Of a DNA stretch of 64,000 bases, positions 7,295 through 32,468 are shown piece after piece. A program made the translations under genes and the position numbers. The notes beneath the pieces are model-generated. The model worked only from the letters and a program-made list of their open reading frames with translations. It was not told where the DNA came from and searched no databases. How positions within the stretch are numbered: the first letter of the stretch is position 1; each line of letters begins with the position of its first letter. Where the stretch lies: IMG/VR virus record IMGVR_UViG_3300027793_000086; one strand, given 5' to 3'. The DNA is from an uncultured virus (IMG/VR IMGVR_UViG_3300027793_000086). Taxonomy: Duplodnaviria; Heunggongvirae; Uroviricota; Caudoviricetes.

Positions 7295-9769
7295 TTACTC
7301 CTTTGCAGGCGCAGCGGTTTGCGCCTTCATTTGCTGTTGCACCGCTTGTTGTCGCATCTTCATCTGTTGCTGCTGAGCCTGATGGTTCAGCTTTTGACGA
7401 TGTGTTTGCTCCTTCTGCTGTAACTCCTGCTGCGCCCGCATAGCCTTCAGGCGAGGGTCTTCACCCTGGTTTTTCTGGGCTTCAAGCTGCAAGCGCTGCG
7501 CCTCAAGCTGCAGCTTTTGCTGCGCGATCTGGAAGTCCATCTGGTCGTTCTGGGCCTTGCGCTGCACTTCGGCCTGCTTCAACTGAAGCTCCACCTGCTG
7601 CATCTGCAAGACGGGGTCCTGCGCCTGCTGCTGAGCTTGTTGTTGAGCCGCCATTGCTTGGTTCTGGACCATCGTGCGCTGTGCAGCGGCGGCAATTAGC
7701 GGAGCCAGGGCCTTCTCGTCTTCGGGGGCGATGGGCGCGTTGTCTTCCTCGTCCAGCGTGGGCAGGGGCACACCCAGGGCCATCTCGACCTGAGCCCGGT
7801 ATGCGAACGCAGCGTGCTCTGCGATGTGCGCCATGAGCGCGGCCATCATCTGCTGCGCCATCGGGTTCTGACCCAGCGTGGCCGCAATCTTCGGATCTTG
7901 CATGAACGCCTGATGGGTTAGGAGGTGCGCCTCATGATCCTGATACGCGAACGCCTTGACGGGCTTGCCACGCAGCACGTTCATGTTCTCCGTCACAGGG
8001 TCCTGGGGTTTCTGGTCTTCAGGGATGGCAACCAACCGTTCAGCGTTCTTGATGCCCAACACCTCCAGCATCTGCCGATGCAACTGAGGCAGGTCGTAGA
8101 TCTGCGGCGCACCTTGAGCCAATTGCAGTGCCGCTTGGTACTGCATGATCCGCTGCGCCATCGTGGCCGCGTTGGGGTCACTGACCGGGATCACCTCTAC
8201 GAGGTCATAGTCAGACTGCTTGACCGACCGGTCTCCGCCTTCTGGCGTGTAGGAATAGTCTGCAGGTAGGAAGTCACGGATGATTCCTTTGAGGAGCTTG
8301 AACTCCATTCTCAGGCTGGCGTGCACGCGGGCCTGAACAGCCGACATCGTCTTGAGTTGGCGCTCCAAAATCGCCAGCGTGGTGCCCACCGGGGCCTGTG
8401 CGCTCATGTCGCTGACCTTCAGGTCTGCGATGGCAGCAAGGCGTCGGCCTTCCTCTGTGATGCGCTCCAGCAGGGCGGCAAGAACCTGACTGGGCTCCTT
8501 GTACGGCAGAGGCATGATGTTGTCCCTGACCGATCCACTGGGGATATCTACGTCCCTGAACTCGCCTGGAGCAATAGGAGTGTCGTCACCCTTAATCCGC
8601 AAACCTCGGCTCTTCAAACCACCGGGCAGGTTGGACAGGGTTCCAGCATCAACGAGTTGGCGAATGATGGAAGTGCCAGCGCGAGCATAACCACCAATAA
8701 GGTGGATATAACCCAAACCATAAGCACCAAAACCAGGAATGTAGGTGTATTGAACGAAGTGTTGTCGCTTGAGTTTTCGGTTGTCGTCTTCGTTCCAGTT
8801 TCTTCGGATTGCCAGAACCGTCTGAGTGCCCCTCTCAACCGTGACCACATACGGCAAAGGAACTTCATCTTCGTACCCCGGCATGTCCCAGTCTACGTGG
8901 ATCTCAAGCACCTGATACCGATCATCATCGGTAAGGGTATACCCTTGTTCTTCCGCTTTTTTCTTCTCAATGTCAGTAAAGAACCTGACAGGTTCACCCA
9001 GTTCTACGTCTCTATAAAAGCCAGCAACCTGCAGTTTTTTAAGCTCGTTCTCCGTCTTGCGCATGATGTGGGTCACGCGCTCGGCTGTGTACACGTTCGA
9101 CGCCCCGTAGGGCATGATCAGATCTTCAGCAGGGACGAATGGTGCAGCAGGCAGTTCTGTGCTCGGGTTGGGGTAGATCTTCTTGAACGCTGCACCTGAC
9201 AGGCCCAGGGAGTACAGCATCCGCTCGTGCTCAGAGCGGTAGTCAATCATCTTCTCGGTCAGCATGTAGTTCATGTCATCGCGGACACGTTCTGCAGCTT
9301 CTTCCTTCAGACGATCAATGGCACCGATGATCTGCGTTTTCACCGGGCCTTGAGCCGGGAACGTCTCAGTGATCATCTCCGACTGGAACCTGATAGCAGC
9401 TTCGGTCAGCAGCGGGCTGTACACCCCACAGGCACCGTTCCACGGCTCAGTGCGCTCTTCATACTTCATCCCCAGGACTTCCAAACCCTTGACGAACATC
9501 TCCGTCCAGTCTTTGCGACTGTTAATGTCTGCGTCTACCAGGGAGACAAGCTCTGAGGCCAGCGTCTGAAGCTCGCCATCGTCCATGTACTCCGCGAGGT
9601 TGGCACCGAAGTCCTCGGCAGTTTCTGGCTCTGACTCAAGGGTGATTTCTACGTCTCCGGTACGGAGGCTTACAGCCTCCGGGTTCTCGATCTCAATCTC
9701 GATGGCAGGCTCGTCGCCCATCATCAGGGGGTCCAGGGGCATGAGGGCTTGGTCGATATTCGTTGCCAT
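7295..9769 (-). CDS. Portal protein
   Basis: 824 aa following TerL; SRKDW, PW.GA.GV..PLL.EA, GFYG.G-like motif, Gln-rich C-terminal barrel as in P22-like portals. Confidence 0.88.
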   Translation of the reverse strand: MATNIDQALMPLDPLMMGDEPAIEIEIENPEAVSLRTGDVEITLESEPETAEDFGANLAEYMDDGELQTLASELVSLVDADINSRKDWTEMFVKGLEVLGMKYEERTEPWNGACGVYSPLLTEAAIRFQSEMITETFPAQGPVKTQIIGAIDRLKEEAAERVRDDMNYMLTEKMIDYRSEHERMLYSLGLSGAAFKKIYPNPSTELPAAPFVPAEDLIMPYGASNVYTAERVTHIMRKTENELKKLQVAGFYRDVELGEPVRFFTDIEKKKAEEQGYTLTDDDRYQVLEIHVDWDMPGYEDEVPLPYVVTVERGTQTVLAIRRNWNEDDNRKLKRQHFVQYTYIPGFGAYGLGYIHLIGGYARAGTSIIRQLVDAGTLSNLPGGLKSRGLRIKGDDTPIAPGEFRDVDIPSGSVRDNIMPLPYKEPSQVLAALLERITEEGRRLAAIADLKVSDMSAQAPVGTTLAILERQLKTMSAVQARVHASLRMEFKLLKGIIRDFLPADYSYTPEGGDRSVKQSDYDLVEVIPVSDPNAATMAQRIMQYQAALQLAQGAPQIYDLPQLHRQMLEVLGIKNAERLVAIPEDQKPQDPVTENMNVLRGKPVKAFAYQDHEAHLLTHQAFMQDPKIAATLGQNPMAQQMMAALMAHIAEHAAFAYRAQVEMALGVPLPTLDEEDNAPIAPEDEKALAPLIAAAAQRTMVQNQAMAAQQQAQQQAQDPVLQMQQVELQLKQAEVQRKAQNDQMDFQIAQQKLQLEAQRLQLEAQKNQGEDPRLKAMRAQQELQQKEQTHRQKLNHQAQQQQMKMRQQAVQQQMKAQTAAPAKE

Positions 9770-9780: not shown

Positions 9781-11337
9781 TCAGTAATACGCCGCTCTAC
9801 GTGAGCGGTTGAGGTATTCAGGGTCCCGGTAGTCCGTTGGCAGTCTGATGAACCCGCCCTGCCGATATCTCGCCAGCACCATTGATAGGCAGTCCACCAT
9901 GTCGTCATGCGACCCGTAGGGGAACGCAACGGATTGCTCGATCACTTCCTCGGCCCAACGGCGTCCTTCAGGATACCAGACCATCCCTGAGCGCAGGATG
10001 TCAGACACGGCGTTCAGACGTGCAACCTTGTCCCCGGTGCCCCGGTGCGGCGTGAACTCCTGCACGGGTATGCCCATGCGCCGAAGCTCCTGAAACAGTG
10101 GCGTGCCGCTGGACTTCTTCTCCACGATGAACGCATCGGGGTCCCAGTCCTTCCATTCCCGAACCGCAAGGTCCTTCAACTCGGGGAACTCCACCCGCAC
10201 GTTGATCGCGTTCAGCAAGATGATGTGTGACGCACCATCTGTCAGGTCGTCGTCACTGAACACACCAAAGGTCAGCAGGGCTGTAAAGTCAGAGCGGTTG
10301 TTCTTTTCCGCCGCTGCGTCCAGCGCCATGATGATGTATTCGCAGGATGGTGGGTCGTCTTTTTTCCACGGCTGCCACCAATCGCGCTGGATGATCGCAC
10401 CTTGCTCCCCGGTGGGGTTCTGCATGTACTGCGCGTTCCACTGGAACGCAGGCATCGATGCTTTGGTACGCTCAAGCGCTTCTAGATCGAACTTCTCAGG
10501 CCAAAGCGCTTTTTCAACGGTCTTTTCACCCTCGTCAGTGGGCGTTTTTACCGTCATGATGGCAGGAAATTCAAACACTTCGTACTGGTCTGCCTTGGGG
10601 TTGTTAACACCATCCTTTATCAGGTGCCCAATCAGGTCATCTTGGTGCCAACGTGTGTGAATCACTGCAATTCGACCGCCTGACATCAGACGTGTACGTG
10701 CACCAAAGGCAAACCACTGATAGGTTTTCTCAAGTTCCTCGAAATTACCCGCCAAAAGGTCCTGTTCTGAGTGCGGATCGTCCACCAATAGCAGGTCAGC
10801 ACCCCGTCCAGCCAGTGCAGCACCTACACCGGTAGCAAAATACTCCCCTCCGTGGTTCGTAGACCATCTACCAGCGCTTTTTGAGTCAGCAGCGAGGGTG
10901 ATTCCGGGAAAAATTGACGTGTACCGGGGGTCTGCGATGATATTTCGCACTTTTCGACCGAAATCGACGGCCAAATCACCAGTATGGGACACCATCAGCA
11001 CTTTTTTGCCAGGGAATTTACCCAAAAACCATGCAGGAAACAGCGTACTGACGAGGTGTGATTTACCATGCCGGGGCGGGATGGACACAGCAATACGGTC
11101 TTTGTGTCCGAAAGCGATCTGAGTCAGCAGTTCAGCCAGCTTTTTGTGGTGAGGAGCCACGACGTAAGTCGGGTCCATGTGCTTGCAGAACTCCAGCAGG
11201 TTGTCTTGGCAGAGTTTGGCCTGCCTCCTGCGCTCAAGCTCATCAATGATGACCGCGATCTGGCTCTGCTCCTCAGGGCTGAACTGGCTGATGTTGGCAG
11301 CCAGAGCCTCGATCTCAGTTTCGGTGAGAAGCTGCAC
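9781..11337 (-). CDS. terL: Terminase large subunit
   Basis: Walker A region PPRHGKS, Walker B LLLVDD, TRWHQDD, nuclease DAA..SDFTA and HDDMVD motifs. Confidence 0.95.
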   Translation of the reverse strand: MQLLTETEIEALAANISQFSPEEQSQIAVIIDELERRRQAKLCQDNLLEFCKHMDPTYVVAPHHKKLAELLTQIAFGHKDRIAVSIPPRHGKSHLVSTLFPAWFLGKFPGKKVLMVSHTGDLAVDFGRKVRNIIADPRYTSIFPGITLAADSKSAGRWSTNHGGEYFATGVGAALAGRGADLLLVDDPHSEQDLLAGNFEELEKTYQWFAFGARTRLMSGGRIAVIHTRWHQDDLIGHLIKDGVNNPKADQYEVFEFPAIMTVKTPTDEGEKTVEKALWPEKFDLEALERTKASMPAFQWNAQYMQNPTGEQGAIIQRDWWQPWKKDDPPSCEYIIMALDAAAEKNNRSDFTALLTFGVFSDDDLTDGASHIILLNAINVRVEFPELKDLAVREWKDWDPDAFIVEKKSSGTPLFQELRRMGIPVQEFTPHRGTGDKVARLNAVSDILRSGMVWYPEGRRWAEEVIEQSVAFPYGSHDDMVDCLSMVLARYRQGGFIRLPTDYRDPEYLNRSRRAAYY

Positions 11338-11984: not shown

Positions 11985-12013
11985 AATGTAACGCGAAAAA
12001 TTTGTGCATGCAA
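11985..12013 (-). promoter_or_regulatory. sigma70-like promoter of the virion operon
   Basis: TTGCAT-17 nt-TACATT about 30 nt upstream of terS. Confidence 0.55.
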
Positions 12014-12228
12014 GGGGTGGTAGGAATCCTACCGGGGGGTGTTTCTATATTGGCAGGGGTGGGGGTGTACCCACCCCCGAGTTTATTTTTGTTGTAGCCT
12101 AATTCGTATCAAATTGCGCTCCTAATACCGCCGTAACGCCCAGACGTCCTCGTTGTTTATGCGTAACACAGCGCAAAGCGCGGCGGCGGAGTCCCAACGC
12201 ATACAGGGGTCTCCCGGGTAGGGTGGGT

Positions 12229-12245
12229 GTTATACAGTGTATAAC
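12229..12245. promoter_or_regulatory. Palindromic operator-like site GTTATACA-G-TGTATAAC, copy 1
   Basis: Perfect 8-bp inverted repeat; identical copy at 13116-13132. Confidence 0.6.
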
Positions 12246-12319
12246 CGAAAAACACGCGTTACCCTAGAGTGTAGGCATGACAAACCTACATTAACCTAAC
12301 CCTGTAAAGGAAACGCAAA

Positions 12320-12961
12320 ATGTCACAAGTGCAATTCGATCTTTCCCCCGCAGCCTCAGTCCTCTCAGACGCCGCAAGTGCAGAGAGCACCGCACGTGAT
12401 AAGTGGTCACGCGCTGGTAAGGCGCTGGCAAAGATGGGGCTTGTCTCTGAAATGCTGGTGAAGTCTACTGACAAGCACCCTAATGCTTTGTGGAATCAAT
12501 CAGTCTACACACAAGTCCGGGGCTTCATTGTTCAGGGCGTTTCTGCTTCGAAGAAACCTGTAACTCTCATCACTACAGTTCCAGGTAGCGTATCCGCCGA
12601 AAGCCCGAAAGGGTCAAACAAGTGGTCAGTTGCAATGCTGTTGGACCTGACAACTGATCAGTTGCGGGAAATCGACGACGATGTGCTCAAGTCTCTCCGT
12701 CGGGAATATATGCAACTGGTTGACGGTACGATGATGTCACGGGTGAAGACCCATATCGATAAGGCTAACGGTATCGTCAAAACTAAGGGTTCGAAGGGGA
12801 GCGATAGTGCTGATACAGCCCCGGCGGAATCAACCGATCCGATCGTGATTATCCAGGGCATCATAAACAAGGCGACTCAGATCGTAGACGTTGCCGATGT
12901 TGATAGGTTACAGAATGCTGGACTCGAAATGATCGCATTGATTCGCAAGCACCGCAAGTGA
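12320..12961 (+). CDS. Hypothetical early protein
   Basis: 213 aa, RBS AAGGA, own terminator; no recognisable domain. Confidence 0.75.
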   Translation: MSQVQFDLSPAASVLSDAASAESTARDKWSRAGKALAKMGLVSEMLVKSTDKHPNALWNQSVYTQVRGFIVQGVSASKKPVTLITTVPGSVSAESPKGSNKWSVAMLLDLTTDQLREIDDDVLKSLRREYMQLVDGTMMSRVKTHIDKANGIVKTKGSKGSDSADTAPAESTDPIVIIQGIINKATQIVDVADVDRLQNAGLEMIALIRKHRK

Positions 12962-12967
12962 TCGCAG

Positions 12968-13000
12968 CCCCGCAGGGTACACGCCCTGCGGGGTTTTTTT
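12968..13000 (+). terminator. Intrinsic terminator
   Basis: CCCGCAGGG-tacacg-CCCTGCGGG followed by a T8 run. Confidence 0.88.
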
Positions 13001-13114
13001 GTGCCTGCTCGGGACCGGATGTCAAGAGTACGCGAGTGGCACGCCAGCACGCGAGTCCCCACGCCGCGCCTGTACGCGAGGCCGCGCATCGACGCGCTAT
13101 GCTACCCAAAGCAA

Positions 13115-13133
13115 TGTTATACAGTGTATAACA
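13115..13133. promoter_or_regulatory. Palindromic operator-like site, copy 2
   Basis: TGTTATACA-G-TGTATAACA. Confidence 0.6.
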
Positions 13134-13228
13134 AACTTATAACGCGCCGCAGGGTAGCACCGACACCCGGTCCCCTAGAGTCCGCGAGGCTGAGCAGGGG
13201 TGGCACGCCAGCAGCCCGCCCCGACTTC

Positions 13229-13398
13229 GTTCCTTGTGTTCCTGTACCTCTCTCTCTTTTAAGAAAGTTTCTTAGATTAGTATTAACCCTACTTATTTAT
13301 TTTGTTTTACATGGCTAAGGGGGGGTCTGGGGCATCTTCCTACTCTTTGGCGGGAACTGGAGGAACGCGCGGAACAATCCAATCAAATCAACAACTTA
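13229..13398. other. Candidate replication origin (inverted iterons, AT-rich core, IHF site)
   Basis: GTTCC at 13229 and 13238, AT-rich 13255-13312, GGAAC at 13353, 13362 and 13371, IHF consensus AATCAACAACTTA at 13386-13398. Confidence 0.45.
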
Positions 13399-13572
13399 GC
13401 CGTTATACTAACTTTGTGTCCATAATTCCACCCCCTAATTCCACACACTAACTCCGCGAGCACCCCCCTTCCCAGTCTTACTGGTAGTAAAGCTAGCCCC
13501 TTGCGCACCCCGCTCCAGTTATGCTACCATAACAACTCCTAGCCCCCATCAACCCCCAGGAGCCCCCACACC

Positions 13573-14640
13573 ATGCGCTACCCCGACCCCGAACTGCTCG
13601 CCCGCCGCTGCATCATCCTCACCAACAAGCGTGGCGAGCCCTACATTGCCTACCGCAGCAATGGACTCAATCCGATAGAGATTTGGGGCAAACCCGTACC
13701 TTATACAGCAGGCATCATCTTCGGTACCCCCGAGGACGTGATCCTCACGTTCGAAGACTTCATCGCCCCCTTCACCATCTACTCCCCCGCCCTGCAACTC
13801 ACCAGTGACCTGCCCATCGACGCCCCATCAATGGACATCAAGTTCACCCCTGCCACAGACGCCAAGGTGCACACCCTGCGGGACTACGGTTCAGTTGTGC
13901 AGAACAAAGCCCTGTATCACGAATCAATGGTACAGATACGCAACCACTCCATCGACAAGCTATTCAAGAAAGCCCTCAAGCGCATCGGCAAAGAGGAGAC
14001 TGCATTGGACACACTAGAGCGGTTTGAAGTTGTCTCCGTTGTGGCTAAGTTGATGTGTGTATCCAACGCCGTAGTGAACAAGGCCCTGAAACTGCCGGTC
14101 CCGCCGAAAGCAGATGGTGCACCTAACCTACGCACCACGGGCAGGCAGCACAGCTTCCCCAAGTCGATCTCTTCAGAGCACGCATACAAGCTCAAGGCAC
14201 TGAAGGCTGCTGTGCAGCAGTGCAGGACGAACATGACCAACCGAGGGGGCAGTTCGTTTGTCTTGCAGGACCTATACGCCGTGGGCGAACCGGGCGGGTT
14301 CGTTACCCGCTGCCCCGTGCTGGGTGTGGACCTAGCCTGGGACGAGTTTGCTTCGTACTACGCACCCCGCGTCGGGAGACGCGACACCCGGTCTGCCTTC
14401 ACGTCGGAGAACGTGATGGTGATGAGCATGTTGGCCCGGAAGATGGTCGAGGGCATGACAGTAAGTGCCCTGCCTGTTCTGCTGAAGAGCCGCCCTGCCT
14501 TGGCTGAGCGGTTCAAAGAGTGGTCTGCCAAGCATCCACCTGTGCCAAACGAGAAGACTGCTGAAGCTGTCGAAGAAGCGGTAAAGAAGACTCAACTACA
14601 GAAATTAGTTGACGATTGGAAGGACAGTGGAGAGGATTAA
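13573..14640 (+). CDS. Hypothetical protein with degenerate His-Me finger (HNH-like) C-terminal domain
   Basis: CPVLGVDL...APRVGRRDTRSAFTSENVMVMS resembles CPVLG...PSLDRID..KGY..NV.VIS..AN but lacks the conserved D/N residues. Confidence 0.6.
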   Translation: MRYPDPELLARRCIILTNKRGEPYIAYRSNGLNPIEIWGKPVPYTAGIIFGTPEDVILTFEDFIAPFTIYSPALQLTSDLPIDAPSMDIKFTPATDAKVHTLRDYGSVVQNKALYHESMVQIRNHSIDKLFKKALKRIGKEETALDTLERFEVVSVVAKLMCVSNAVVNKALKLPVPPKADGAPNLRTTGRQHSFPKSISSEHAYKLKALKAAVQQCRTNMTNRGGSSFVLQDLYAVGEPGGFVTRCPVLGVDLAWDEFASYYAPRVGRRDTRSAFTSENVMVMSMLARKMVEGMTVSALPVLLKSRPALAERFKEWSAKHPPVPNEKTAEAVEEAVKKTQLQKLVDDWKDSGED

Positions 14641-14644
14641 ATGC

Positions 14645-14673
14645 TTGACATAAGGAGCTACTTGGCATATAAT
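14645..14673 (+). promoter_or_regulatory. Perfect-consensus sigma70 promoter (main early promoter)
   Basis: TTGACA-17 nt-TATAAT. Confidence 0.9.
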
Positions 14674-14745
14674 AGATACATCGGCTGGGAAATCAAACAG
14701 AGAGACCTTTCGCAGACGATACGCTGCAAGCACTGCTAGCAGCTA

Positions 14746-14762
14746 CGCTCTTTAACAATTTA
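14746..14762 (+). promoter_or_regulatory. boxA (NusB/NusE) antitermination element
   Basis: CGCTCTTTAACAATTTA matches the rrn leader boxA (TGCTCTTTAACAATTT), about 70 nt downstream of the promoter. Confidence 0.75.
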
Positions 14763-15180
14763 GTCTTGCTCAACGCCGTGAGGCGCTGTAGGCATAGTGT
14801 TCAGTCGCGCAGTGATAAGCCCGCAAGGGCGTACAGCGCTATCGTTCATGACTTGTGTTACTGCTGAGTCACATCAACCCGTGCGTGTCGCATCACGCAG
14901 TAAGAGGTCCGTGGCAGGTAGGAAGGTGAATGTATCCCCCTGCAAGGGTGCAGCACATCATGAAGGGTCCGTAGCACTCCCTGCATAGTGGTGATGGGTA
15001 AGAGTCCCATGCTGCTATTACATGAATGAACCTGCACGGGGGCGGAGGTGGTTAGGAAAGACACCACCCAACATGCCCCCTGCTTGATGCGCTTCGCGCT
15101 TTGCGTCCGGGTACTGGACGGGCAACGAGTGCATCAAGCAGCATGTGCAGCCGACAATCGTCGGCGGTGCTGCGAACACC
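14763..15180 (+). ncRNA. Putative large structured non-coding RNA / leader
   Basis: No credible ORF; GNRA-capped hairpins, a T-loop-like hairpin, an 11-bp perfect helix (15080-15090/15131-15141). Confidence 0.55.
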
Positions 15181-15190
15181 GGAGAGTGCT

Positions 15191-15508
15191 ATGAACATCA
15201 TCACAAACAACCGCCCACGCCCGATGGCGTGCTTCGCGGACCTGCCTGCCAAGGTGCAGGCTGACTTTGATTACGTCCTGCTGGCTGACCACTACAGCCC
15301 GCGCTTCGTCCAGTACAAGGGCGAGTGGTATGACGTGTACGACAGCCAGACGATCGGCCCGTGTCCGCGTGACACGAACGTGCTGGGGGGTTTGGGCTTC
15401 AGCCAGTTTGTTGGCTGGCACGGCATCGTGTCGGACTCGTTTTTCAGCGGTGTGCTGTTCAAGTTGTGCGACGACGACACCGTGATCGTCGGTCGGTATT
15501 TCAGTTAA
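15191..15508 (+). CDS. Hypothetical early protein
   Basis: MNIITNNRPR..., RBS GGAG; 105 aa. Confidence 0.75.
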   Translation: MNIITNNRPRPMACFADLPAKVQADFDYVLLADHYSPRFVQYKGEWYDVYDSQTIGPCPRDTNVLGGLGFSQFVGWHGIVSDSFFSGVLFKLCDDDTVIVGRYFS

Positions 15509-15535
15509 CGGGGCGCTGCCCCGAAGGAGAATGCA

Positions 15536-15718
15536 ATGACTTGCAGTAACTGCAACACAACGCAGACCAATCAGTTCTGGCGCCTGCGTGGGTACTACGG
15601 TATCAACGGGACGTTCTGCTCCAAGTGTTACGACCTTGTTGCACACGATCCTTATGGCAACCCGCAGAACCCACAAGCCTACGCCCGCAGTGAGTTTGTG
15701 TTTCAAGTTCTGAATTAA
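15536..15718 (+). CDS. Small Zn-finger protein
   Basis: CxxC...CxxC, RBS AAGGAG. Confidence 0.65.
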   Translation: MTCSNCNTTQTNQFWRLRGYYGINGTFCSKCYDLVAHDPYGNPQNPQAYARSEFVFQVLN

Positions 15719-15728
15719 CCACGGTTAA
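15715..15728. promoter_or_regulatory. Palindromic site TTAACC-AC-GGTTAA
   Basis: Identical copy at 22725-22738; related palindrome at 19155-19172. Confidence 0.55.
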
Positions 15729-15738
15729 GGAGGTAGAT

Positions 15739-15873
15739 ATGAATACTTATCTTCGCTACATGCGTGCTGAGTTGCGTGCGTGGGCCGATGGCAACACTGC
15801 CAAGGCCATCATGCTGGCGCGGTGGAAGGCCCGTGCGTACAAGATGTACGCAGTTGAAACCCCGTACTACTGA
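15739..15873 (+). CDS. 44-aa hypothetical protein
   Basis: Not in the ORF track; MNTYLRYMRAELRAW...ETPYY, RBS GGAGG. Confidence 0.65.
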   Translation: MNTYLRYMRAELRAWADGNTAKAIMLARWKARAYKMYAVETPYY

Positions 15874-15882
15874 GGAGGTGCT

Positions 15883-16287
15883 ATGAATATCGGATTCACT
15901 GAACGTGACGTGCATAACGCTGAGCGTTACGTCGATGCCCTGGCTAAGTCCGGGGCGCAGTATGCCCGCATGGGTAAGGTGTCCGTGGAGACGCTGGAGC
16001 AGGAGCGTGACACGCTGGAGATCGGTGGCGCATACATCATGCAGCACGAAGGCCAGACCACGGGGCTGGTGCCCCGCCCGTGCATCAAGTACTCGGTGCA
16101 GATTCCCTACACCACGCACGGTGGGTACTGGGAACCCGACGAGACGGACTACCACGAGATTGCTACGACGGACTCACTGTTCGAAGCAATCCTCAATCTA
16201 TATTTACAGTTAGCGGATCAGTATTGTCGTGACGTGGCAATGGCTACCGCGTATGAATTGGACAACGAAGCTCTGGAGGAAGTATGA
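15883..16287 (+). CDS. Hypothetical protein
   Basis: 134 aa, RBS GAGGAGG. Confidence 0.75.
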   Translation: MNIGFTERDVHNAERYVDALAKSGAQYARMGKVSVETLEQERDTLEIGGAYIMQHEGQTTGLVPRPCIKYSVQIPYTTHGGYWEPDETDYHEIATTDSLFEAILNLYLQLADQYCRDVAMATAYELDNEALEEV

Positions 16288-16553
16288 ACAAGACACAACT
16301 GGCGCAAGCCTTCGTCGCAGGGCAGCAGGGCCGCTGCCATAACGCAGCAACGGACGGGCAGGCATACACCCTGCACGCGTCACCGATCGCCGTCAAAGAG
16401 GGCGACAACGTGGTGTTCCACTGGCACGGGTACTACACCCATTCAACTGCATCGCATATGAACTTCATCCTCAAGGCTCTGGGTGCACCGGTACGTGCAT
16501 CCTTCGCTCAAGCCCGTGACACAGGGCAGACTCACTTCGTGGTGGCGGTATGA
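16284..16553 (+). CDS. Hypothetical protein
   Basis: 89 aa, ATGA coupling. Confidence 0.7.
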   Translation: MNKTQLAQAFVAGQQGRCHNAATDGQAYTLHASPIAVKEGDNVVFHWHGYYTHSTASHMNFILKALGAPVRASFAQARDTGQTHFVVAV

Positions 16554-16714
16554 AATACGTTTGGATTGTGTGGTCTTCCGACTCGGAAAAACCCTGGATC
16601 GAGCACGTATGTACTGACAAGGTGCTGGCTGAATCGATCCTGCGTCATCTGAAAGACACCGACGATGGTTGTGGGTACATCTACTGGATACAAGAAAAGG
16701 AGATCACGGTATGA
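16550..16714 (+). CDS. 54-aa hypothetical protein
   Basis: Not in the ORF track; MKYVWIVWSS...YWIQEKEITV, ATGA overlaps at both ends. Confidence 0.6.
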   Translation: MKYVWIVWSSDSEKPWIEHVCTDKVLAESILRHLKDTDDGCGYIYWIQEKEITV

Positions 16715-16914
16715 ACTGCATCCACTGCGATGACGACATTGACCCGCGCCGTGCGGCCCTGGGCTACAAGCTCTGCTTGTTCTGCGGCGAGGAGGCTGCC
16801 CGTGAGGAGCGCAAGGGATGGACCATCGTCCCGATGCACAAGAGCAATTACGTCCTGCTGGTGGACCGAAGGGACCTGCCGGGAATCGGTAACAAAGGGG
16901 GATTACATCGATGA
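16711..16914 (+). CDS. C4 zinc-finger protein (DksA/TraR-like finger)
   Basis: CIHCDDDIDPRR...CLFC pattern; RBS AAGGAG. Confidence 0.6.
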   Translation: MNCIHCDDDIDPRRAALGYKLCLFCGEEAAREERKGWTIVPMHKSNYVLLVDRRDLPGIGNKGGLHR

Positions 16915-17090
16915 ACACCGAACCCATGTCCCTACACGAGGCACTGCGCGTGGCGCTGTCCGAGATCTACGCAACGCTGGACACCTTCGAACTGATGGAC
17001 CCCGAAGAGCAGAAGGCCATGTGGATCAACCCACCCGATGCCCTGCGGGAAGCTGCGCGGATCATCGACATACACATGAGAGAGGTATGA
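16911..17090 (+). CDS. 59-aa hypothetical protein
   Basis: Not in the ORF track; MNTEPMSLHEALRVALSEI..., ATGA coupling. Confidence 0.6.
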   Translation: MNTEPMSLHEALRVALSEIYATLDTFELMDPEEQKAMWINPPDALREAARIIDIHMREV

Positions 17091-17094
17091 GGAA

Positions 17095-17352
17095 ATGATT
17101 GTCAACGGTACACAACTGCGACGCGCTCTGCTTACTGGACCGACGCCAACGTGGCGGGCAGGGATGAACACTGCACTGCACATCATCCGCAGTAACAGCG
17201 CTGTCATAGACGATACCTGGGTGGTGGACGACACTGCGTGGAGTAAGGCTATGAACATTCTGTCCCGCTTGCCAAGTGGCGGGCGCTGGGTATGGAAAGC
17301 AAGAGAGCAACTGTTCTGGGCGCTTGACCGCGCAACGAAAGGAACATCATGA
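17095..17352 (+). CDS. Hypothetical protein
   Basis: 85 aa in the coupled early gene array. Confidence 0.6.
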   Translation: MIVNGTQLRRALLTGPTPTWRAGMNTALHIIRSNSAVIDDTWVVDDTAWSKAMNILSRLPSGGRWVWKAREQLFWALDRATKGTS

Positions 17353-17582
17353 AAGTCAACATCGAAGTAACCGACACCTTCAACGGTGAAGCTAACTACG
17401 GGTGGGTGCGTAGATACATCCTCGACGTGCCGATGGCACTGTCGGACTACAGCGTAGTGCGCCGAGTGAAGCATCACATCGGCTGGAACGGTAAACGCTG
17501 CACTACCGTTAAGTATGGTGATATGATAGAATTGAGACCTTACGGTGAATGCACAGTGTGCTTCATCACCTTTGGTGAGTGA
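17349..17582 (+). CDS. Hypothetical protein
   Basis: IEVTDTFNGEANYGWVRR motif seen in small phage proteins. Confidence 0.7.
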   Translation: MKVNIEVTDTFNGEANYGWVRRYILDVPMALSDYSVVRRVKHHIGWNGKRCTTVKYGDMIELRPYGECTVCFITFGE

Positions 17583-17629
17583 GTGAGTGGGTGGCCGCTG
17601 CCCTCCAGCGGTATGTCAATTGAGGAGTA

Positions 17630-18100
17630 ATGCAAATGTTTGATCTGAACCAAATCCTGTCCGCCGCCCTGAACGCTGCTGTTGCCGAGGCTGTCGCTCC
17701 GCTGCTGGAGCGGATCACTGCGCTTGAAGAGGGCTGCGTGGGTATTGACCAGCGTCTGCTGGAGCAGCGTGTTGCTTTGCTTGAGACCAAGCTGACCGAG
17801 GCCAAGCTCTTTGAGCAGACCACCAACGTCACGATCCCCATCGACGAGGCCAAGATGGTCGAGGCACTCAACTCTCAGGAATGGTTCTGGGAGAAGCTGC
17901 GCCGTACCACCGACGCGCAGATCGAGCAGGCAATGGACAACCACCTTGAGACCTACAACCACGACGACTACGACAACGTCGTCAGCAACTGGAACGACGA
18001 AGACCCGGCTGACTTCCTGCGTGAAAGCGAGCTGCATGACCAGATCGACGACCGTGTCAACGAGACGCTGCGTAACGCCACGTTCAGCATCAGCATCTAA
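17630..18100 (+). CDS. Hypothetical acidic coiled-coil protein
   Basis: 156 aa, RBS GAGGAG, biased codons. Confidence 0.75.
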   Translation: MQMFDLNQILSAALNAAVAEAVAPLLERITALEEGCVGIDQRLLEQRVALLETKLTEAKLFEQTTNVTIPIDEAKMVEALNSQEWFWEKLRRTTDAQIEQAMDNHLETYNHDDYDNVVSNWNDEDPADFLRESELHDQIDDRVNETLRNATFSISI

Positions 18101-18107
18101 ACCAACC

Positions 18108-18126
18108 GCCCCGAGAGGGGCTTTTC
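18108..18126 (+). terminator. Probable intrinsic terminator
   Basis: GCCCC-GAGA-GGGGC-TTTT. Confidence 0.55.
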
Positions 18127-18138
18127 AAGGAGAGAGTC

Positions 18139-19152
18139 ATGACGATATCAATCGCTACCGCTGCCATGCTCGGCAGCATCAACATCTCCGTGTGGGAAGC
18201 ACGGAAGCAGGACAAGAAGACTGCCGACGAGGTGACGCAGGCCAAGGGTGCCCGATCGAAACGCGCCGCTACGGTGCACAAGCACCTGTTCAGTGAGTGC
18301 CCTGCCCTTGAGGCCATCAAGTCCCTGCGTGGCGAGGTGCGGGCATGGTTCAACACCCAGACCCTGCCCTGGGATGACAACGGACGCAGGCTCATCACCA
18401 CCGCCCAGTACCTCAACGTGATGGGGCAGGCTGCCAAGTACGAGCAGCGGTTCAACGACCTGATTCAGGTCTTCCTGCGAACCTACTCCACGGAGATCAG
18501 CAAGCAGGCTTTCGAGATGGGTGCGCTGTTCGACCGTGCCGAGTACCCGCCCGAGTCTGAGGTGGCTGCCAAGTTCCGCTTTTCTTTTGCCATCGAGCCC
18601 GTGCCTGAGTCGGGGGACTTCCGCGTGGACATCGGTGCTGCCGCTGCCGCTGACCTGAAGGATCAGTATGACAAGGCGCTGCAGGCCCGCGTAGCCACTG
18701 CCGTGGCCGACGCATGGGATAGGGTACGTGATCAGGTGAATTGGATTCGTGACCGGATGGCTGCCGTGCTGGAGCATGACCCCGACGCCGTGGAGGAAAT
18801 AATCCATCGCGGCCCCGTCAAAGTCGGCACCGAGGAAGTGCCGGAATACGATGACGATGGTAATGTCGTGGGCACAACGACGCGGGACATCACGCAGGAG
18901 GGTGTGGTGTCAGTCGAGATCAAGAAGAAGCGCCGCCCGAAGCTGTACGACAGCATGCTGGAGCAAGGCCTTGAGTTGTGCACTCTGCTCACGTCACTGA
19001 ATGTGACAGGCGATCCGAAGCTGGAGCAGGCCCGTGTGGCGCTGGAGACGGCGCTGTCCCGTGTCGACATGGACAGCCTTAAAACCACTCCCGAACTTCA
19101 GAACCATCTGAAGAACAAAATGGACGAAATTCTTTCTGAATTCTCGTTGTGA
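18139..19152 (+). CDS. DUF3150-like protein accompanying the AAA+/vWA module
   Basis: 337 aa, SVWEARKQDK...TLPWDDNGRRL...FDRAEYP...PVP.SGDFR. Confidence 0.65.
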   Translation: MTISIATAAMLGSINISVWEARKQDKKTADEVTQAKGARSKRAATVHKHLFSECPALEAIKSLRGEVRAWFNTQTLPWDDNGRRLITTAQYLNVMGQAAKYEQRFNDLIQVFLRTYSTEISKQAFEMGALFDRAEYPPESEVAAKFRFSFAIEPVPESGDFRVDIGAAAAADLKDQYDKALQARVATAVADAWDRVRDQVNWIRDRMAAVLEHDPDAVEEIIHRGPVKVGTEEVPEYDDDGNVVGTTTRDITQEGVVSVEIKKKRRPKLYDSMLEQGLELCTLLTSLNVTGDPKLEQARVALETALSRVDMDSLKTTPELQNHLKNKMDEILSEFSL

Positions 19153-22122: not shown

Positions 22123-22366
22123 TCGGCAGCGCAACCTCAGCACAACGTACAGGTTCACCGACGTGGGGGGCCTGTATGAAGTCACGCTGTACCCCAAGGC
22201 ACCGACGCCTATCGTGACCGAGCGGTATCGTCTGGACATGCTGCCTGCATGGGTACAAGAGGCCATCCACCTACTAGACTGGGCGCACCCTGAGGAGGTG
22301 CGGGATGTGGGCAGGAAGGTCGGGCAGACGTACTGGATCGATGCAAAACTTGAAGAACCCGCTTGA
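22115..22366 (+). CDS. Hypothetical protein
   Basis: 83 aa, LPAWVQE...DVGRKVG..YW. Confidence 0.7.
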   Translation: MIDRQRNLSTTYRFTDVGGLYEVTLYPKAPTPIVTERYRLDMLPAWVQEAIHLLDWAHPEEVRDVGRKVGQTYWIDAKLEEPA

Positions 22367-22391
22367 CACGCTGCATGGCAGCGATTAGAGT
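22363..22391 (+). promoter_or_regulatory. sigma70 promoter with palindromic spacer
   Basis: TTGACA-17 nt-TAGAGT; the spacer contains CGCTGC-ATG-GCAGCG. Confidence 0.65.
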
Positions 22392-22728: not shown

Positions 22729-22749
22729 CCACGGTTAACTCCGCACTCA

Positions 22750-22778
22750 ACGCTCTGCTTAGGCAGGGCGTTTTTGTT
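22750..22778 (+). terminator. Intrinsic terminator
   Basis: AACGCTCTGC-TTAG-GCAGGGCGTT followed by TTTGTT. Confidence 0.75.
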
Positions 22779-26728: not shown

Positions 26729-27011
26729 AGTCAAAGCTAAGTGCGTTGACATCATCAAGAAGTACAAAGGCTATTACTTCTTCCCTGCACAGAATGGCTA
26801 CGGTCGAGCAGGCATACCAGACATCATCGTGTGCTACCGAGGCATGTTCCTGGGTGTAGAATGCAAGGCTGGATTCAATAAGCCCACTGCTCTACAAGAG
26901 CGTGAGATGGCAGACATCCACCGTGCCGGTGGGTCCGCGATGGTGGTGCGCGAAGACACTACTGAACTGCTAGAAGAGTGGTTCCATGAGAGATCACAAT
27001 GGACATCCTGA
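26709..27011 (+). CDS. VRR-NUC domain nuclease
   Basis: TPE.KVK, G.PDII, F.GVECKA, PTALQ. Confidence 0.85.
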   Translation: MATPENKVKAKCVDIIKKYKGYYFFPAQNGYGRAGIPDIIVCYRGMFLGVECKAGFNKPTALQEREMADIHRAGGSAMVVREDTTELLEEWFHERSQWTS

Positions 27012-28933
27012 CGTTGGATTTCGAGACCTATTACGACAAGGATTTCAGTCTCAGCAAGCTGACGATGGAGCACTACATCCGCGACCCGCGCTTCGAAGTC
27101 ATCATGCTCGGGATTCGCTGGCCGGATGGCACCAAGGAGATCGTCACCGGCAGCCACGAGGAGGTGCAGTACCGGCTCGATGGCATCGAGTGGGGTAAGT
27201 ACGCGGTGCTGTGCCACAACACGCTCTTCGATGCTGCCATCCTGTCATGGAGGTTTGGGGTCAATCCCGCTGCGTGGCTGGACACCCTGTCGATGGCACG
27301 TGCCATGTTCGGTATGAAGGGCAACTCGCTGGCCCTGCTTGCCAAGCGGTACGGGCTGGAGGACAAGGGCACTGCCGTGCAGAACGCGATGGGCAAACGT
27401 CGCTGTGACTTCACGCCGCAAGAGTTCAAGGAGTACGCTGACTACTGCCTGCACGACGTGCAGCTATGCCATGAACTGTTCTTCCTGATGTCCAACGGGT
27501 GGTACAAGCCCGAGACGTTCGACCATCGAGACCCCTACCCCCGCAAGGAACTGGAGTTGATCGACCGGCTCATCAGGATGTACACCGAGCCCACGCTGCG
27601 CTTGAACGCGCAGAAGCTGGAGGAGCACCTTGCCGATGTGGTGCGGCGCAAGGATGAACTGCTGACCAAGGCGGGTATCGCCAAGGAAGACCTGATGTCC
27701 AACCCGAAGTTCGCTTTGGTGCTGGAGTCGTTCGGTGTGTCCCCGCCGATGAAGATCAGTGCCACGACAGGCAAGCAAGCGTTCGCTTTCGCCAAGACCG
27801 ACCCGGGTATGAAGGCCCTGCTGGAGCACCCTGACGACCGAGTGCAGGCTGTGGTGGCTGCCCGGATGGGGGTCAAGAGCACCCTGGAGGAGACGCGCAC
27901 GCAGCGGTTCATCGACATGGCGCAGCGCAACCCGCTGTTCCCGGTGCCTCTGAGATATTCTGCTGCGAGAACGCACCGCTTGGGTGGCACTGATGGTATA
28001 AACCTGCAGAACCTACCGGCCCGTGGGGCACAAGCCAACAAGCTCAAGAAGTGCATCGAGGCACCTCCGGGCCATGTGATCATCGACTGCGACTCGTCCA
28101 ACATCGAGGCGCGGATGCTTGCGTGGCTGGCGGGGCAGGATGACCTCGTGCAAGACTTCGCCAACGGCGTGGATGTGTACTGCAAGATGGCGAGTAAGAT
28201 CTTCGGTAGGCCGATAACGAAGGCGGATAAGGTAGAGCGGTTCGTAGGCAAGACGGTAGTTTTAGGTTGCGGCTACCAAACGGGGGCGATGAAACTTCAG
28301 ATCACACTGAAGGCGTCCGAGATGAACATGGACTTGGAATTGAGCGAGTGCAAGAACATCATCGACACGTACCGTAACTCAGTGCCTGCCATCACGAGAC
28401 TATGGAGGACGGGGGATAGCGCGATTGAAGCTATGCACAGGAATACGTCCATGTGGTTCGGGCGTGAAGGTGTTGCACTGGTCGAGGGTAACAAAGGCAT
28501 CAAGCTACCCAGCGGACTGTACATCAGCTACCCGCAGCTACACCGTGCGGTGAAGAGCAAGAACGGCATGGCGTTTGAAGCATGGCAGTACAAAGACGAA
28601 ACCGGACTGGTGGATATATACGGAGGAAAAAGTGTTGAAAATCTGGTGCAGGCGCTGGCGCGTATCATTGTGATGCAGCAGCTACTAAAGATCTCTAAGA
28701 AGCTGCACGTGGTGTTGACTGTTCATGATGCGGTGGCTGCGATAGTTCCGGTAGGCGACGTGTCCAAGGCTATAAGGTACGACGAAGAGAAACGGTGCTA
28801 CGTACCTGTTTCTGAAGAGGCGAAGGGCGCTGTTGCATACGTTGAGGAATGTATGCGTTGGGTTCCGAAGTGGGCAGCGGGCTGCCCTATCAACTGTGAA
28901 AGTGGGATTGGAAGGACGTACGGTGATTGCTGA
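26999..28933 (+). CDS. polA: Family A DNA polymerase with 3'-5' exonuclease domain
   Basis: ExoI DFET, HNTLFD, YCLHD; NLQN; motif A DSSNIEAR; motif B RFVGKTVVLGCGY; motif C VHD. Confidence 0.93.
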   Translation: MDILTLDFETYYDKDFSLSKLTMEHYIRDPRFEVIMLGIRWPDGTKEIVTGSHEEVQYRLDGIEWGKYAVLCHNTLFDAAILSWRFGVNPAAWLDTLSMARAMFGMKGNSLALLAKRYGLEDKGTAVQNAMGKRRCDFTPQEFKEYADYCLHDVQLCHELFFLMSNGWYKPETFDHRDPYPRKELELIDRLIRMYTEPTLRLNAQKLEEHLADVVRRKDELLTKAGIAKEDLMSNPKFALVLESFGVSPPMKISATTGKQAFAFAKTDPGMKALLEHPDDRVQAVVAARMGVKSTLEETRTQRFIDMAQRNPLFPVPLRYSAARTHRLGGTDGINLQNLPARGAQANKLKKCIEAPPGHVIIDCDSSNIEARMLAWLAGQDDLVQDFANGVDVYCKMASKIFGRPITKADKVERFVGKTVVLGCGYQTGAMKLQITLKASEMNMDLELSECKNIIDTYRNSVPAITRLWRTGDSAIEAMHRNTSMWFGREGVALVEGNKGIKLPSGLYISYPQLHRAVKSKNGMAFEAWQYKDETGLVDIYGGKSVENLVQALARIIVMQQLLKISKKLHVVLTVHDAVAAIVPVGDVSKAIRYDEEKRCYVPVSEEAKGAVAYVEECMRWVPKWAAGCPINCESGIGRTYGDC

Positions 28934-30089: not shown

Positions 30090-30114
30090 CGTGTAGCCCC
30101 GCTGGGGCTATGCT
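30086..30114 (+). promoter_or_regulatory. sigma70 promoter with palindromic spacer
   Basis: TTGACG-17 nt-TATGCT; TAGCCCC-GCT-GGGGCTA overlaps the spacer and -10. Confidence 0.6.
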
Positions 30115-30742: not shown

Positions 30743-30940
30743 ATGGCTACGCAAAAAGAACTCAAAGATATCTGTCATCTTATGTTTGAAATCTTGAGTG
30801 ACAGTGACCTAACAAACTCAGAAGCACTGGAGATAGCACTCAACTTTTACGGGACAGTCTGCGTTCAAACTGATGTAACTGTTCATGATGCTGTAGGTGG
30901 GGTCATGACCTTCTACAAAAAACAACATGCAAATAGTTGA
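30743..30940 (+). CDS. Hypothetical protein
   Basis: 65 aa, RBS GAGG, AT-richer. Confidence 0.6.
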   Translation: MATQKELKDICHLMFEILSDSDLTNSEALEIALNFYGTVCVQTDVTVHDAVGGVMTFYKKQHANS

Positions 30941-32468
30941 AGACAAAGCTCTGCTGCTCAAGCTCAAGCACCCCGAGCGGGTGCTGAACACCATCCCGAA
31001 AAGCAAACGCTTGGACGATGGGCAGGTGCTGGTGCGGTGGGGGCTTGAGGAAGCACAGGTGCTGAAGAACCTCGGTGTTCGGTCGGTGCCTTCTCCCATC
31101 GAGCGCAGGTACAAGTGGCCTGGGCTGTTCAAGCCCTTCGAACACCAGAAGGACACCGCATCGTTCCTTACCCTGCACCGCAGGGCGTTCTGCTTCAACG
31201 ACCCGGGCACGGGCAAGACTGCATCCTTCGCCTGGGCTGCTGACTACCTGCTGGACAAAAAGTACATCAGCCGTGTGCTGGTGATCTGCCCGCTGTCAAT
31301 CATGAACTCGGCGTGGAGAGCAGACCTGTTCAAGACGCTGATGCACCGCAGGGTGGATGTGGCCCACGGCAGTCGGGACAAGCGGGTCAAGGTGATCAAG
31401 TCCGACGCTGAGTTTGTCATCATCAACTTCGATGGTGTGGAGACGGTGCTCGATGAACTCAGAGCAGGTGGGTTTGACCTTGTGATTATTGATGAAGCAA
31501 ATGCGGTGAAGACCGCTACGACGAAAAGATGGAAAGCAATCAACTCATTACTAACTCCCAACACATGGCTGTGGATGGCAACGGGGACACCAGCATCTCA
31601 GGCCCCGACAGACGCATACGGTTTGGCCCGTATGTTGAACCCTTCCTCCGTGCCTCCGTACTTCTATTCCTTCAGGGATACAGTCATGTACAAGGCAACG
31701 CAATTCAAATGGACCGCAAAGAAAAACGCAGCAGAGATCGTCAACAAGGTGCTGCAACCCGCCATACGTTACACCAAGGATGAGTGCCTGGACCTGCCTG
31801 AGCTTCTGTACACGACACGTGAGGTAGACCTGACCCCGCAGCAGTCGAAGTATTACAAGATGCTCAAGGATCAGTTCATCATGGCAGCGGCAGGGGAGAC
31901 AGTCACCTCAGTCAACGCAGCGACCAACCTGAATAAACTTCTTCAAGTGGCAAGCGGTGCGGTTTATACGGACGATGGCAACACCGTCGAGTTCGACATC
32001 ACGAACCGGTACAACGTGCTGGTAGAAGCTATCGATGAGAGCACCCACAAGGTGCTGGTCTTCGTCCCGTTCCGCCATGCCATCGAGGTTCTGCGCGACA
32101 GGCTGCGCAAGGATGGGTACGCAGTGGAGGTGATTCACGGGGGCGTCTCAGTGACCCGCCGCACAGAGATCTTCCAAGCGTTTCAGACCGAGCCCGAGCC
32201 GCGCATCCTCCTCATACAGCCTGCGGCTGCATCGCATGGCGTCACCCTGCACGCTGCCAACACAGTGGTGTGGTGGGGTCCTGTCACTTCGAACGAGATC
32301 TGGCACCAAGCCAATGCACGGGTGCACCGTGCAGGCCAGAAGAACCCCTGCCTCGTGGTCAGGCTTTGCGGCTGCAACGTCGAGCGCAAGCTCTACGCGG
32401 CTCTGGACCTGAAGACCGAGGACATGGACTCCCTTCTCAATTTGTACAAGGAGGAGCTTGACGTTTGA
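30927..32468 (+). CDS. SNF2-family helicase
   Basis: PGTGKT, IIDEA, TGTP, HGVTL, QANARVHRAGQ. Confidence 0.9.
   Translation: MQIVEDKALLLKLKHPERVLNTIPKSKRLDDGQVLVRWGLEEAQVLKNLGVRSVPSPIERRYKWPGLFKPFEHQKDTASFLTLHRRAFCFNDPGTGKTASFAWAADYLLDKKYISRVLVICPLSIMNSAWRADLFKTLMHRRVDVAHGSRDKRVKVIKSDAEFVIINFDGVETVLDELRAGGFDLVIIDEANAVKTATTKRWKAINSLLTPNTWLWMATGTPASQAPTDAYGLARMLNPSSVPPYFYSFRDTVMYKATQFKWTAKKNAAEIVNKVLQPAIRYTKDECLDLPELLYTTREVDLTPQQSKYYKMLKDQFIMAAAGETVTSVNAATNLNKLLQVASGAVYTDDGNTVEFDITNRYNVLVEAIDESTHKVLVFVPFRHAIEVLRDRLRKDGYAVEVIHGGVSVTRRTEIFQAFQTEPEPRILLIQPAAASHGVTLHAANTVVWWGPVTSNEIWHQANARVHRAGQKNPCLVVRLCGCNVERKLYAALDLKTEDMDSLLNLYKEELDV

Follow-up and report, generated by a model that had tools for sequence, protein, structure and literature searches.

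Genomic context of the leader

The stretch of DNA analyzed here, referred to as the window, comprises 64,000 nucleotides from an uncultured virus. It is phage DNA: the large terminase subunit (9781–11337) and the portal protein (7295–9769) are encoded on the − strand, a DNA polymerase (26999–28933), a helicase (30927–32468) and a primase (34175–36982) on the + strand. The DNA polymerase shares at most 35% identity with its counterparts in GenBank phages (Rhizobium phage RHph_TM3_14A), and the next-best relatives belong to the Pseudomonas KPP25/phiR18 group (~32%). A virion protein of 2137 residues (37245–43658, − strand) contains an LPD38 domain (E = 3.5e-35); its residues 1021–1151 give a weak local match to a PHROG of N4-type virion RNA polymerases (E = 1.3e-8). 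No other phage RNA polymerase was found among the 24 proteins scanned, a subset of the window ORFs.

The structured RNA described here is located at the head of the + strand gene arm, between a promoter and the first early gene. Its features are collected in Table 1. A PHROG or Pfam function was found neither for 11 tested ORFs of this arm (15191–19152) nor for the genes upstream of the promoter (12320–12961 and 13573–14640). An earlier note on the window had listed a number of motifs in this gap, all of which are present, including CGCC-GTGA-GGCG (14774–14785), GCCC-GCAA-GGGC (14819–14830), ATGGG-TAAGAGT-CCCAT (14994–15010, extended by TAGTGGT/GCTGCTA) and GCCGAC-AATC-GTCGGC (15150–15165). 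The strong promoter and the boxA that it had placed ahead of the gap are equally borne out, with a sigma-70 match of 12/12 and an exact boxA.

Table 1. Features of the early leader and their positions in the window.
Feature	Position	Strand	Remarks
Sigma-70-type promoter TTGACA-17-TATAAT	14645–14673	+	12/12 consensus match
Hairpin GCUGC...GCAGC	14723–14743	+	directly 5' of boxA, the position of boxB in rrn leaders
boxA GCUCUUUAACAA	14747–14758	+	rrn/T7-type, exact
Variable hairpin array, including CGCC-GUGA-GGCG, GCCC-GCAA-GGGC and UGCGUG/CACGCA	14774–14984	+	replaced, deleted or compensated in relatives
Two-part hairpin with conserved 7-nt loop G[UAAGAGU]C	14985–15018	+	T-loop-like; loop in 16/16 distinct leaders
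Three-way junction	15032–15150	+	25 pairs, covariation; junction strand GCAU
Closing stem S0, CUGCAC/GUGCAG	15032–15037 with 15145–15150	+	part of the three-way junction
Arm Sa, GGGGGCG/UGCCCCC	15038–15044 with 15074–15080	+	variable cap
Sa cap hairpin GGUGG...CCACC	15047–15051/15064–15068	+	loop contains GGAAAGAC
Arm P1, 13 bp	15081–15093 with 15128–15140	+	encloses a sub-hairpin; the "11-bp helix" of the earlier note
Swappable hairpin GCCGAC-AAUC-GUCGGC	15150–15165	+	optional, directly after the junction
Conserved tail GGUGCUGCGAACACC	15166–15193	+	then SD GGAGAG 15181–15186, ATG 15191
First early gene	15191–15508	+	105 aa; no PHROG or Pfam match

Several other elements were observed in the surroundings. 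The palindrome GTTATACAGTGTATAAC occurs twice (12229–12245 and 13116–13132), each time upstream of a + strand gene (starting at 12320 and 13573) and followed after 17–41 nt by CCCTAGAGT (12262–12270 and 13173–13181); a role as phage-specific promoter or operator is conceivable. The gene at 12320–12961 encodes 213 residues without a family assignment and is followed by a strong terminator (12966–12995, 13-bp stem plus T-run); contigs from all four RNA libraries described below cover it and stop at 12949–12958. A pyrimidine- and AT-rich stretch (13240–13300), perhaps an origin or one end of the genome, lies within a 570-nt gap without a convincing gene (13000–13570). Further downstream, two intergenic terminator-like hairpins with 10-bp stems are found in the + arm (22749–22772 and 30091–30113), the former directly 3' of a promoter-like site with a 10/12 match (22363–22391). 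They could mark operon boundaries or sites needing read-through. Overall, the 22 terminator-like sites of the + arm are not above chance (16 ± 4 in shuffled sequences).

Occurrence in related phages

The promoter/boxA/leader module is present in 19 other phage contigs. Together with the window this gives 20 sequences containing 16 distinct leaders, which measure about 470–660 nt from the −35 element to the start codon, as determined by reading. Two of these contigs were retrieved with a flanking protein, one viral and three metagenome contigs with exact pieces of the 3' block, and 16 loci with an ATPase gene located 4 kb downstream (63–98% protein identity). The module is present in all 14 of the ATPase-found relatives whose upstream DNA extends over 3.7 kb or more; L097 and L102 were left out of this count because their upstream DNA is too short. 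In the metagenome scan, five of eight stretches (L064, L066, L069, L070 and L071) were discarded as chance matches.

No known RNA family was recognized, as the earlier note had also stated. Rfam 15 gave no match at gathering score in the whole window, none at E-values up to 10 in 14500–15400, and none inside the leaders of L001, L002, L004, L065 and L068, and ARAGORN found no tRNA. A blastn search with 14600–15250 against the GenBank phage collection, T7 included, was without a match. The nearest record (G001, 26 kb) does not match the leader stretch, and exact copies of two pieces from the conserved block were absent from the genomes of 185,579 species. A full-text literature search yielded no description of the leader. 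In PMC10690425, a screen of more than 5 million viral sequences is reported to have predicted 10,006 structured RNAs. The motif may be listed in the supplement of that paper; six sample numbers of the leader contigs are absent from the six supplementary files searched. We conclude that the leader is a real, conserved structured RNA family that is absent from Rfam 15.

Promoter, boxA and the adjoining hairpin

Transcription presumably starts near 14680. TTGACA together with TAYAAT or TATACT is kept in every relative in which the 5' part is present. The sequence GCTCTTTAACAA occurs as a single exact copy in the window (14747–14758). A boxA consensus for gamma-proteobacteria, GYTCTTTAANA, is given in PMC5725501. 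The window sequence GCTCTTTAACA (14747–14757) fits 11/11 of its positions. Among the 15 leaders with a 5' part, ten fit this consensus fully and five have one or two mismatches (by reading). The element is found 25–80 nt into the transcript.

A hairpin adjoins boxA in all six leaders that were folded, with differing stem tops, and by eye also in L088, L090, L091 and L101. It is missing, again by eye, in 5 of 15 leaders (L093, L094, L095, L096 and L100). A boxC was not recognized in the leader by inspection. A pattern search that included boxA returned two additional loci, L084 and L087, both of which are chance matches.

In the minimum-energy folds of all six full-length leaders folded, the CUCUUU of boxA is paired with the purines of the Shine-Dalgarno (SD) sequence. 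This pairing between 14747–14758 and 15181–15186 may represent a genuine long-range closing helix or result from composition. We also observed that the UCUUU of boxA is complementary to AAAGA in the GAAAGA loops (15055–15062 in the window); nearly all leaders contain UCUUU at this site only. An "anti-boxA" pairing of the UAAGAG loop was rejected as a conserved interaction: the 5-nt complement of the loop is found only at boxA in nine leaders (those with a UAAGAG loop and a 5' part), and the seven leaders with UAAGAAU have none at this site.

Variable and conserved hairpins

The middle of the leader is highly variable, and at least two types that cannot be aligned with each other exist among close relatives. 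Within one type, entire hairpins are swapped, lost or compensated. The first hairpin 3' of boxA, for example, has a GUGA loop in the window and a UUCG loop in L001. In an alignment of the window-type leaders, 13 of 166 predicted pairs are changed on both sides with pairing kept.

Two hairpins with conserved loops stand out from this array. The loop G[UAAGARN]C is present in 16/16 leaders as UAAGAGU, UAAGAGA or UAAGAAU. Its upper stem (5 pairs, 8 distinct rows) is 95% paired compared to 77% in shuffled alignments, none of 1000 being as good, and two of the five pairs are changed on both sides. The second hairpin, G[GAAAGA]C, occurs in one or two copies in 13/16 leaders. It is 100% paired (7 pairs, 6 distinct rows; 0/1000 shuffles as good), with five pairs changed on both sides. 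Neither loop motif has a further occurrence elsewhere in the window. A T-loop is a five-nucleotide unit with U at position 1, a purine at position 4 and A at position 5, embedded in a seven-nucleotide loop closed by a G-C pair. The UAAGA(R)N loop agrees with this consensus at positions 1, 4 and 5 in 16/16 leaders. Compared to the tRNA T-arm, GGUUCGAAUCC, the window sequence GGUAAGAAUCC differs at two loop positions.

The repeat GGTCCGTRGCA, which the earlier note had pointed out, is indeed present at 14906 and 14966. However, it is not above chance (four occurrences with at most one mismatch in the window vs. 2.7 expected) and not kept in relatives: in L001 two positions of the second copy are changed, and no copy was seen by eye in the other leader type. 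Inspection by eye further showed a perfect hairpin, formed by an AT-rich palindrome (TATTTACCAGTAAATA type), in the leaders of L095, L100 and L101. The palindrome recurs in inverted orientation before the downstream (second) gene in L100 and could be an operator.

Structure and covariation of the three-way junction

The 3' part of the leader folds into a three-way junction composed of the closing stem S0 and the arms Sa and P1. P1 corresponds to the 11-bp helix CTGCTTGATGC/GCATCAAGCAG (15080–15090/15131–15141). An alignment of the junction in 16 sequences (A5, 25 named pairs) has 95.9% of its 388 cells paired, compared to 85.5 ± 1.0% after shuffling, and none of 500 shuffles was as good. Sliding one strand by one to three columns reduces pairing to 33–58%. 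Eleven pairs are changed on both sides, and eight of these belong to the 13 P1 pairs. The earlier note had called for a collection of homologs and a covariation check; with 16 distinct leaders, this check thus comes out in favor of the fold.

S0 is mostly invariant, with a change from C-G to U-A at columns 12/194 and from U-A to C-G at columns 8/198. The latter, outermost pair is unpaired in 10 of 15 sequences. In distant relatives the register of S0 is shifted by 3 nt (CGCAG/CUGCG), which is invisible to the column count. Since GCAG and CUGC each occur twice in these distant members, their bases can form two alternative folds, the three-way junction or three tandem hairpins. The window subgroup has the three-way fold only.

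P1 varies in size. It spans 60 nt in the window and 55, 61, 47, 58, 77, 35, 115, 40 and 74 nt in the variants, and its interior ranges from a loop of 5 nt to over 80 nt. Including its extensions, the arm comprises ~25 bp with small bulges and would be a plausible substrate for RNase III. In L096 (1284–1451) the interior of P1 contains a tandem duplication of ~37 nt relative to L094, showing that the arm can grow freely.

The six closest relatives are 75–98% identical to the window in the flanks of the leader. Five of them have only one to three varying positions in 15026–15148, and L002 keeps only 15075–15148. In L088, L090, L091 and L093 the CUGCUU/AAGCAG part is kept and the inner half of the stem has been replaced by compensation. 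This inner half is changed again and the interior reshaped in L094–L101; distant relatives keep the base of P1, with a different interior and length. An "invariant core" under exceptional constraint was considered and dropped, as the invariance holds only within the window subgroup. This local invariance may reflect recent spread by recombination at the boundary as much as constraint.

The earlier note had also regarded the gap as structured. The RNA 14683–15195 has a predicted folding energy of −205.4 kcal/mol compared to −185.0 ± 6.0 kcal/mol for 100 shuffled sequences, none of which was as good (z = −3.38), and the covariation in relatives puts this structure under selection. The opposite strand reaches z = −3.51. 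Since both strands fold better than shuffled sequences, energy alone does not name the strand. The junction alignment, in contrast, contains 31 G-U or U-G cells among its 388 cells. These would be A-C mismatches on the complementary strand, so the fold is selected in the RNA of the + strand. The covariance model R1 finds a single copy in the window, with 152.8 bits on the + strand vs. 16.5 bits on the − strand, a difference that arises partly by construction.

A pattern of the stems alone retrieved 55 stretches. Three of these are known contigs, and the other 52 score 21 bits or less with model R1 and are chance matches. Nine contigs of 73–82 kb (L009, L011, L014, L021, L035, L036, L048, L054 and L058) share the 9+9 stem pattern with an identical spacing of 63 nt. 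Clearly, they belong to a single, unrelated phage group that has a conserved inverted repeat of its own; model R1 gave no match in any of them.

The tail, the start codon and the first gene

The hairpin that follows the junction is exchangeable. GCUGGCC-GNC-GGCCAGC takes its place in L001, L002, L065, L067 and L068, and it is absent from L100 and L101. The tail, ending in GCGAACACCGGAGAG-N4-AUG, recurs in the relatives ahead of different first genes. On the + strand no terminator-like site was found from the promoter up to the start codon at 15191, and none of the 16 leaders has a run of five or more T. Since there is no terminator and the conserved 3' tail continues into the SD sequence and the start codon in every relative, the RNA is a 5' leader. 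The candidate "large phage ncRNA" of the earlier note is thus non-coding, structured and represented in RNA libraries, but its reading as a separate RNA gene is not supported.

That the gap has no credible ORF likewise holds. Its ORFs are short (63, 48, 69 residues and similar), and their frames are not conserved among relatives. The length of P1 differs from the 60 nt of the window by −5, +1, −13, −2, +17, −25, +55, −20 and +14 nt, a multiple of three in none of nine cases, and the hairpin 3' of the junction has 17 or 19 nt. Because these indels are not multiples of three, a conserved frame through the junction domain is ruled out. Blastp matches between ORFs of different leaders reflect only shared nucleotides, and a coding reading was rejected.

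Behind the 16 leaders, eight different N-termini are encoded (first residues read from the DNA). In L001, L004, L088 and L100 an extra gene is inserted between the leader and the homolog of the first gene of the window. The leader acts as a constant platform ahead of a gene-swapping slot.

Representation in RNA libraries

The region 12000–18000 is represented at 99% identity or higher in contigs of four freshwater metatranscriptomes from four studies. Single contigs span the sequence from the promoter to the junction (X2, 14630–15085; X3, 14544–15051), and another one joins the tail to the first gene (X1, 15150–15895). Contigs of this kind give no ends, strand or ranking of transcript parts, and RNA libraries can contain DNA. 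The segment 15086–15149 is not covered by contigs X1–X4, and the contigs of the leader end at 15025–15085. This break fits assembly-graph breaks at a block common to co-occurring variants and, equally, processing. The contigs also leave 13005–13808 uncovered, and contig depth is higher over the leader, which holds the deepest contig in three of the four runs; we draw no inference from any of these points.

Comparison with known systems

The closest parallel in layout is found in the early region of T7. T7 contains GCTCTTTAACAA at 813–824, the same 12-nt boxA as the window. Downstream of the host promoters A1–A3 (498, 626 and 750), this boxA is followed by a hairpin (844–911), an SD sequence and the ATG of gene 0.3 at 925. 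The hairpin is long and irregular, encloses a sub-hairpin and adjoins the SD sequence, so that the order of elements is like that in the window. Strong host-type promoters and a leader of several hundred untranslated nucleotides are common to the window and T7/T3. The first gene of T7 is an anti-restriction gene. According to PMC3276506, the RNase III site R0.3 of T7 lies between A3 and gene 0.3. There are, however, clear differences. Beyond boxA, neither T7 nor T3 has sequence similarity to the window. The window has a single promoter, and its boxA is located near the 5' end, whereas that of T7 adjoins the hairpin. About 350 nt of additional conserved and variable hairpins together with the three-way junction have no counterpart in T7, in which nothing resembles the UAAGAR or GAAAGA hairpins. 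Early phage leaders that combine boxA with a processing-type hairpin are of a known kind; the long conserved fold is new.

With the leaders of rRNA operons (rrn), the window shares a boxA matching at 11/11 positions and a hairpin directly 5' of it. In PMC8632103, the rrn nut-like site is described with the order boxB-boxA-boxC, and boxA is the main requirement of the rrn antitermination complexes. As in rrn operons, a long, structured, untranslated RNA comes after boxA, and its folding could profit from a tethered complex as described there. In contrast to rrn, the downstream RNA is not rRNA, no boxC was identified, and the 5' hairpin is missing in 5/15 leaders.

The location of boxA on the early transcript, directly behind the early promoter, is reminiscent of lambda nut, and the purine-rich GAAAGA loops may resemble lambda boxB loops. 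The hairpin 3' of boxA, however, changes in both loop and stem among close relatives, and the GAAAGA hairpins are more than 250 nt away. An N-like arginine-rich protein was not seen among the window proteins scanned. A lambda-type, N-dependent nut site was rejected on these grounds, that is, for want of a conserved boxB 3' of boxA and of an N-like protein among the proteins scanned. The put element of HK022 is described, again in PMC8632103, as a double hairpin of ~65 nt that acts without boxA and needs co-transcriptional folding. Like put, the leader is a folded RNA that acts in cis behind early promoters, in a phage without a visible antiterminator protein. It is set apart by that description, being roughly eight times longer and carrying a boxA.

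Proposed mechanism

Most probably, the leader controls early transcription and is not an RNA gene in its own right. Based on the arrangement of its elements and the comparison with T7 and rrn, we propose that it serves as a cis-acting early-operon leader in which boxA loads the Nus complex of the host and a processing or stability hairpin similar to T7 R0.3 adjoins the SD sequence. To this reading we assign a probability of about 50%. The cycle would start with initiation by the host sigma-70 polymerase at the consensus promoter (14645–14673). Once boxA is transcribed, it would recruit NusB-NusE(S10) and further Nus factors to form a Rho-resistant elongation complex. Rho resistance would be needed because the polymerase still has to traverse about 450–600 untranslated nucleotides and a long + strand arm. 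In the next step the RNA folds, on the evidence of covariation, into a string of changeable hairpins, the hairpin with the UAAGAR loop (often accompanied by one with a GAAAGA loop) and the junction beside the ribosome binding site. The long, imperfect P1 would be a double-stranded processing or stability element like R0.3, and would provide any early gene recombined in behind it with the same 5' context and translation start.

Some observations are not accounted for by this proposal. Neither the conservation of the UAAGAR and GAAAGA loops nor the near-invariance of 15026–15148 is explained by a plain RNase III or stability hairpin. The mismatches of boxA in 5/15 leaders, the missing 5' hairpin in 5/15 and the lack of an identified boxC speak against it as well.

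The readings offered in the earlier note (a put-like antiterminator, a decoy or sponge, a precursor of several sRNAs) gained no direct support. The conserved loops, in combination with a junction of covarying stems, would find a role in a processive antiterminator made of RNA only, similar to HK022 put, in which the junction or the UAAGAR and GAAAGA pair rides the polymerase through terminators and boxA is accessory. The placement directly behind the early promoter, the lack of a recognizable N-like protein and the two intergenic terminator-like sites in the + arm are in line with this. We nevertheless consider it unlikely: put acts without boxA, yet boxA is the best-conserved short element here, the folded domains are 250–450 nt away from the promoter, and the terminator count in the + arm does not exceed chance. 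A similarly low probability is assigned to a stable trans-acting RNA that is set free by cleavage in or near P1 and serves as decoy or sponge, its target being a host RNA-binding factor or a defence protein. Against it speak the lack of a terminator and of a mapped 3' end, loop motifs that occur nowhere else in the window, and hairpins with no Rfam match at E-values up to 10, CRISPR repeat families included. The rapid turnover of hairpins beside a changeable first-gene slot is, on the other hand, the usual look of host-phage conflict loci, two loops are conserved in the manner of binding sites, and the leader stretch is found in contigs of four RNA libraries, the depth of which cannot rank transcript parts.

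The junction and tail might instead gate the SD sequence for a protein or a small ligand, as a riboswitch-like or autoregulatory translational operator. The most conserved domain adjoins the SD sequence, the bases of distant relatives can form either the three-way junction or three tandem hairpins, and the pyrimidines of boxA pair with the SD purines in the minimum-energy folds of 6/6 full-length leaders folded. Yet the window subgroup adopts the three-way fold only, which is backed by covariation at columns 12/194 and 8/198, the boxA-SD pairing could stem from the complementarity of CUCUU to any SD sequence of the GGAG type, and there is no candidate for the ligand or protein. We regard an operator of this kind as quite improbable. 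Least of all do we favor an element acting at the level of DNA, such as a replication origin, a packaging site or a recombination linker that mimics RNA structure. Although both strands fold equally well by energy and the block forms a mosaic boundary with different genes to the right and different hairpins to the left, it is part of a transcription unit and follows directly on a promoter, and its helices are kept through compensatory change rather than by sequence. In addition, 31 G-U pairs are valid only in the + strand RNA, and model R1 scores 152.8 bits on the + strand and 16.5 on the − strand, partly by construction. Taken together, these points make a DNA-level function very improbable.

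As a more speculative idea, which we put forward tentatively and hold to be possible rather than probable, the RNA could be a "pseudo-rRNA" leader. In addition to the loading of the ribosomal antitermination machinery of the host by boxA, the UAAGAR and GAAAGA loops and the junction would dock a second host component (polymerase, ribosome, tRNA or a defence protein). This would couple processive early transcription to takeover or counter-defence and provide a fixed platform for interchangeable early genes.

Significance

These results add a structured RNA family with 16 distinct sequences and strong covariation to an uncultured clade of freshwater phages in which none of the early genes has a known function. 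They suggest that a lytic, non-lambdoid phage without a visible antiterminator protein borrows the boxA of host rRNA operons, as T7 may do, and that it places ~400 nt of conserved, folded RNA between this boxA and a slot in which early genes are swapped. The leader bears on the role of boxA outside rRNA operons and lambda and on RNA-only antiterminators beyond HK022. It also bears on the question of how phages hold the expression context constant for changeable, possibly anti-defence, genes.
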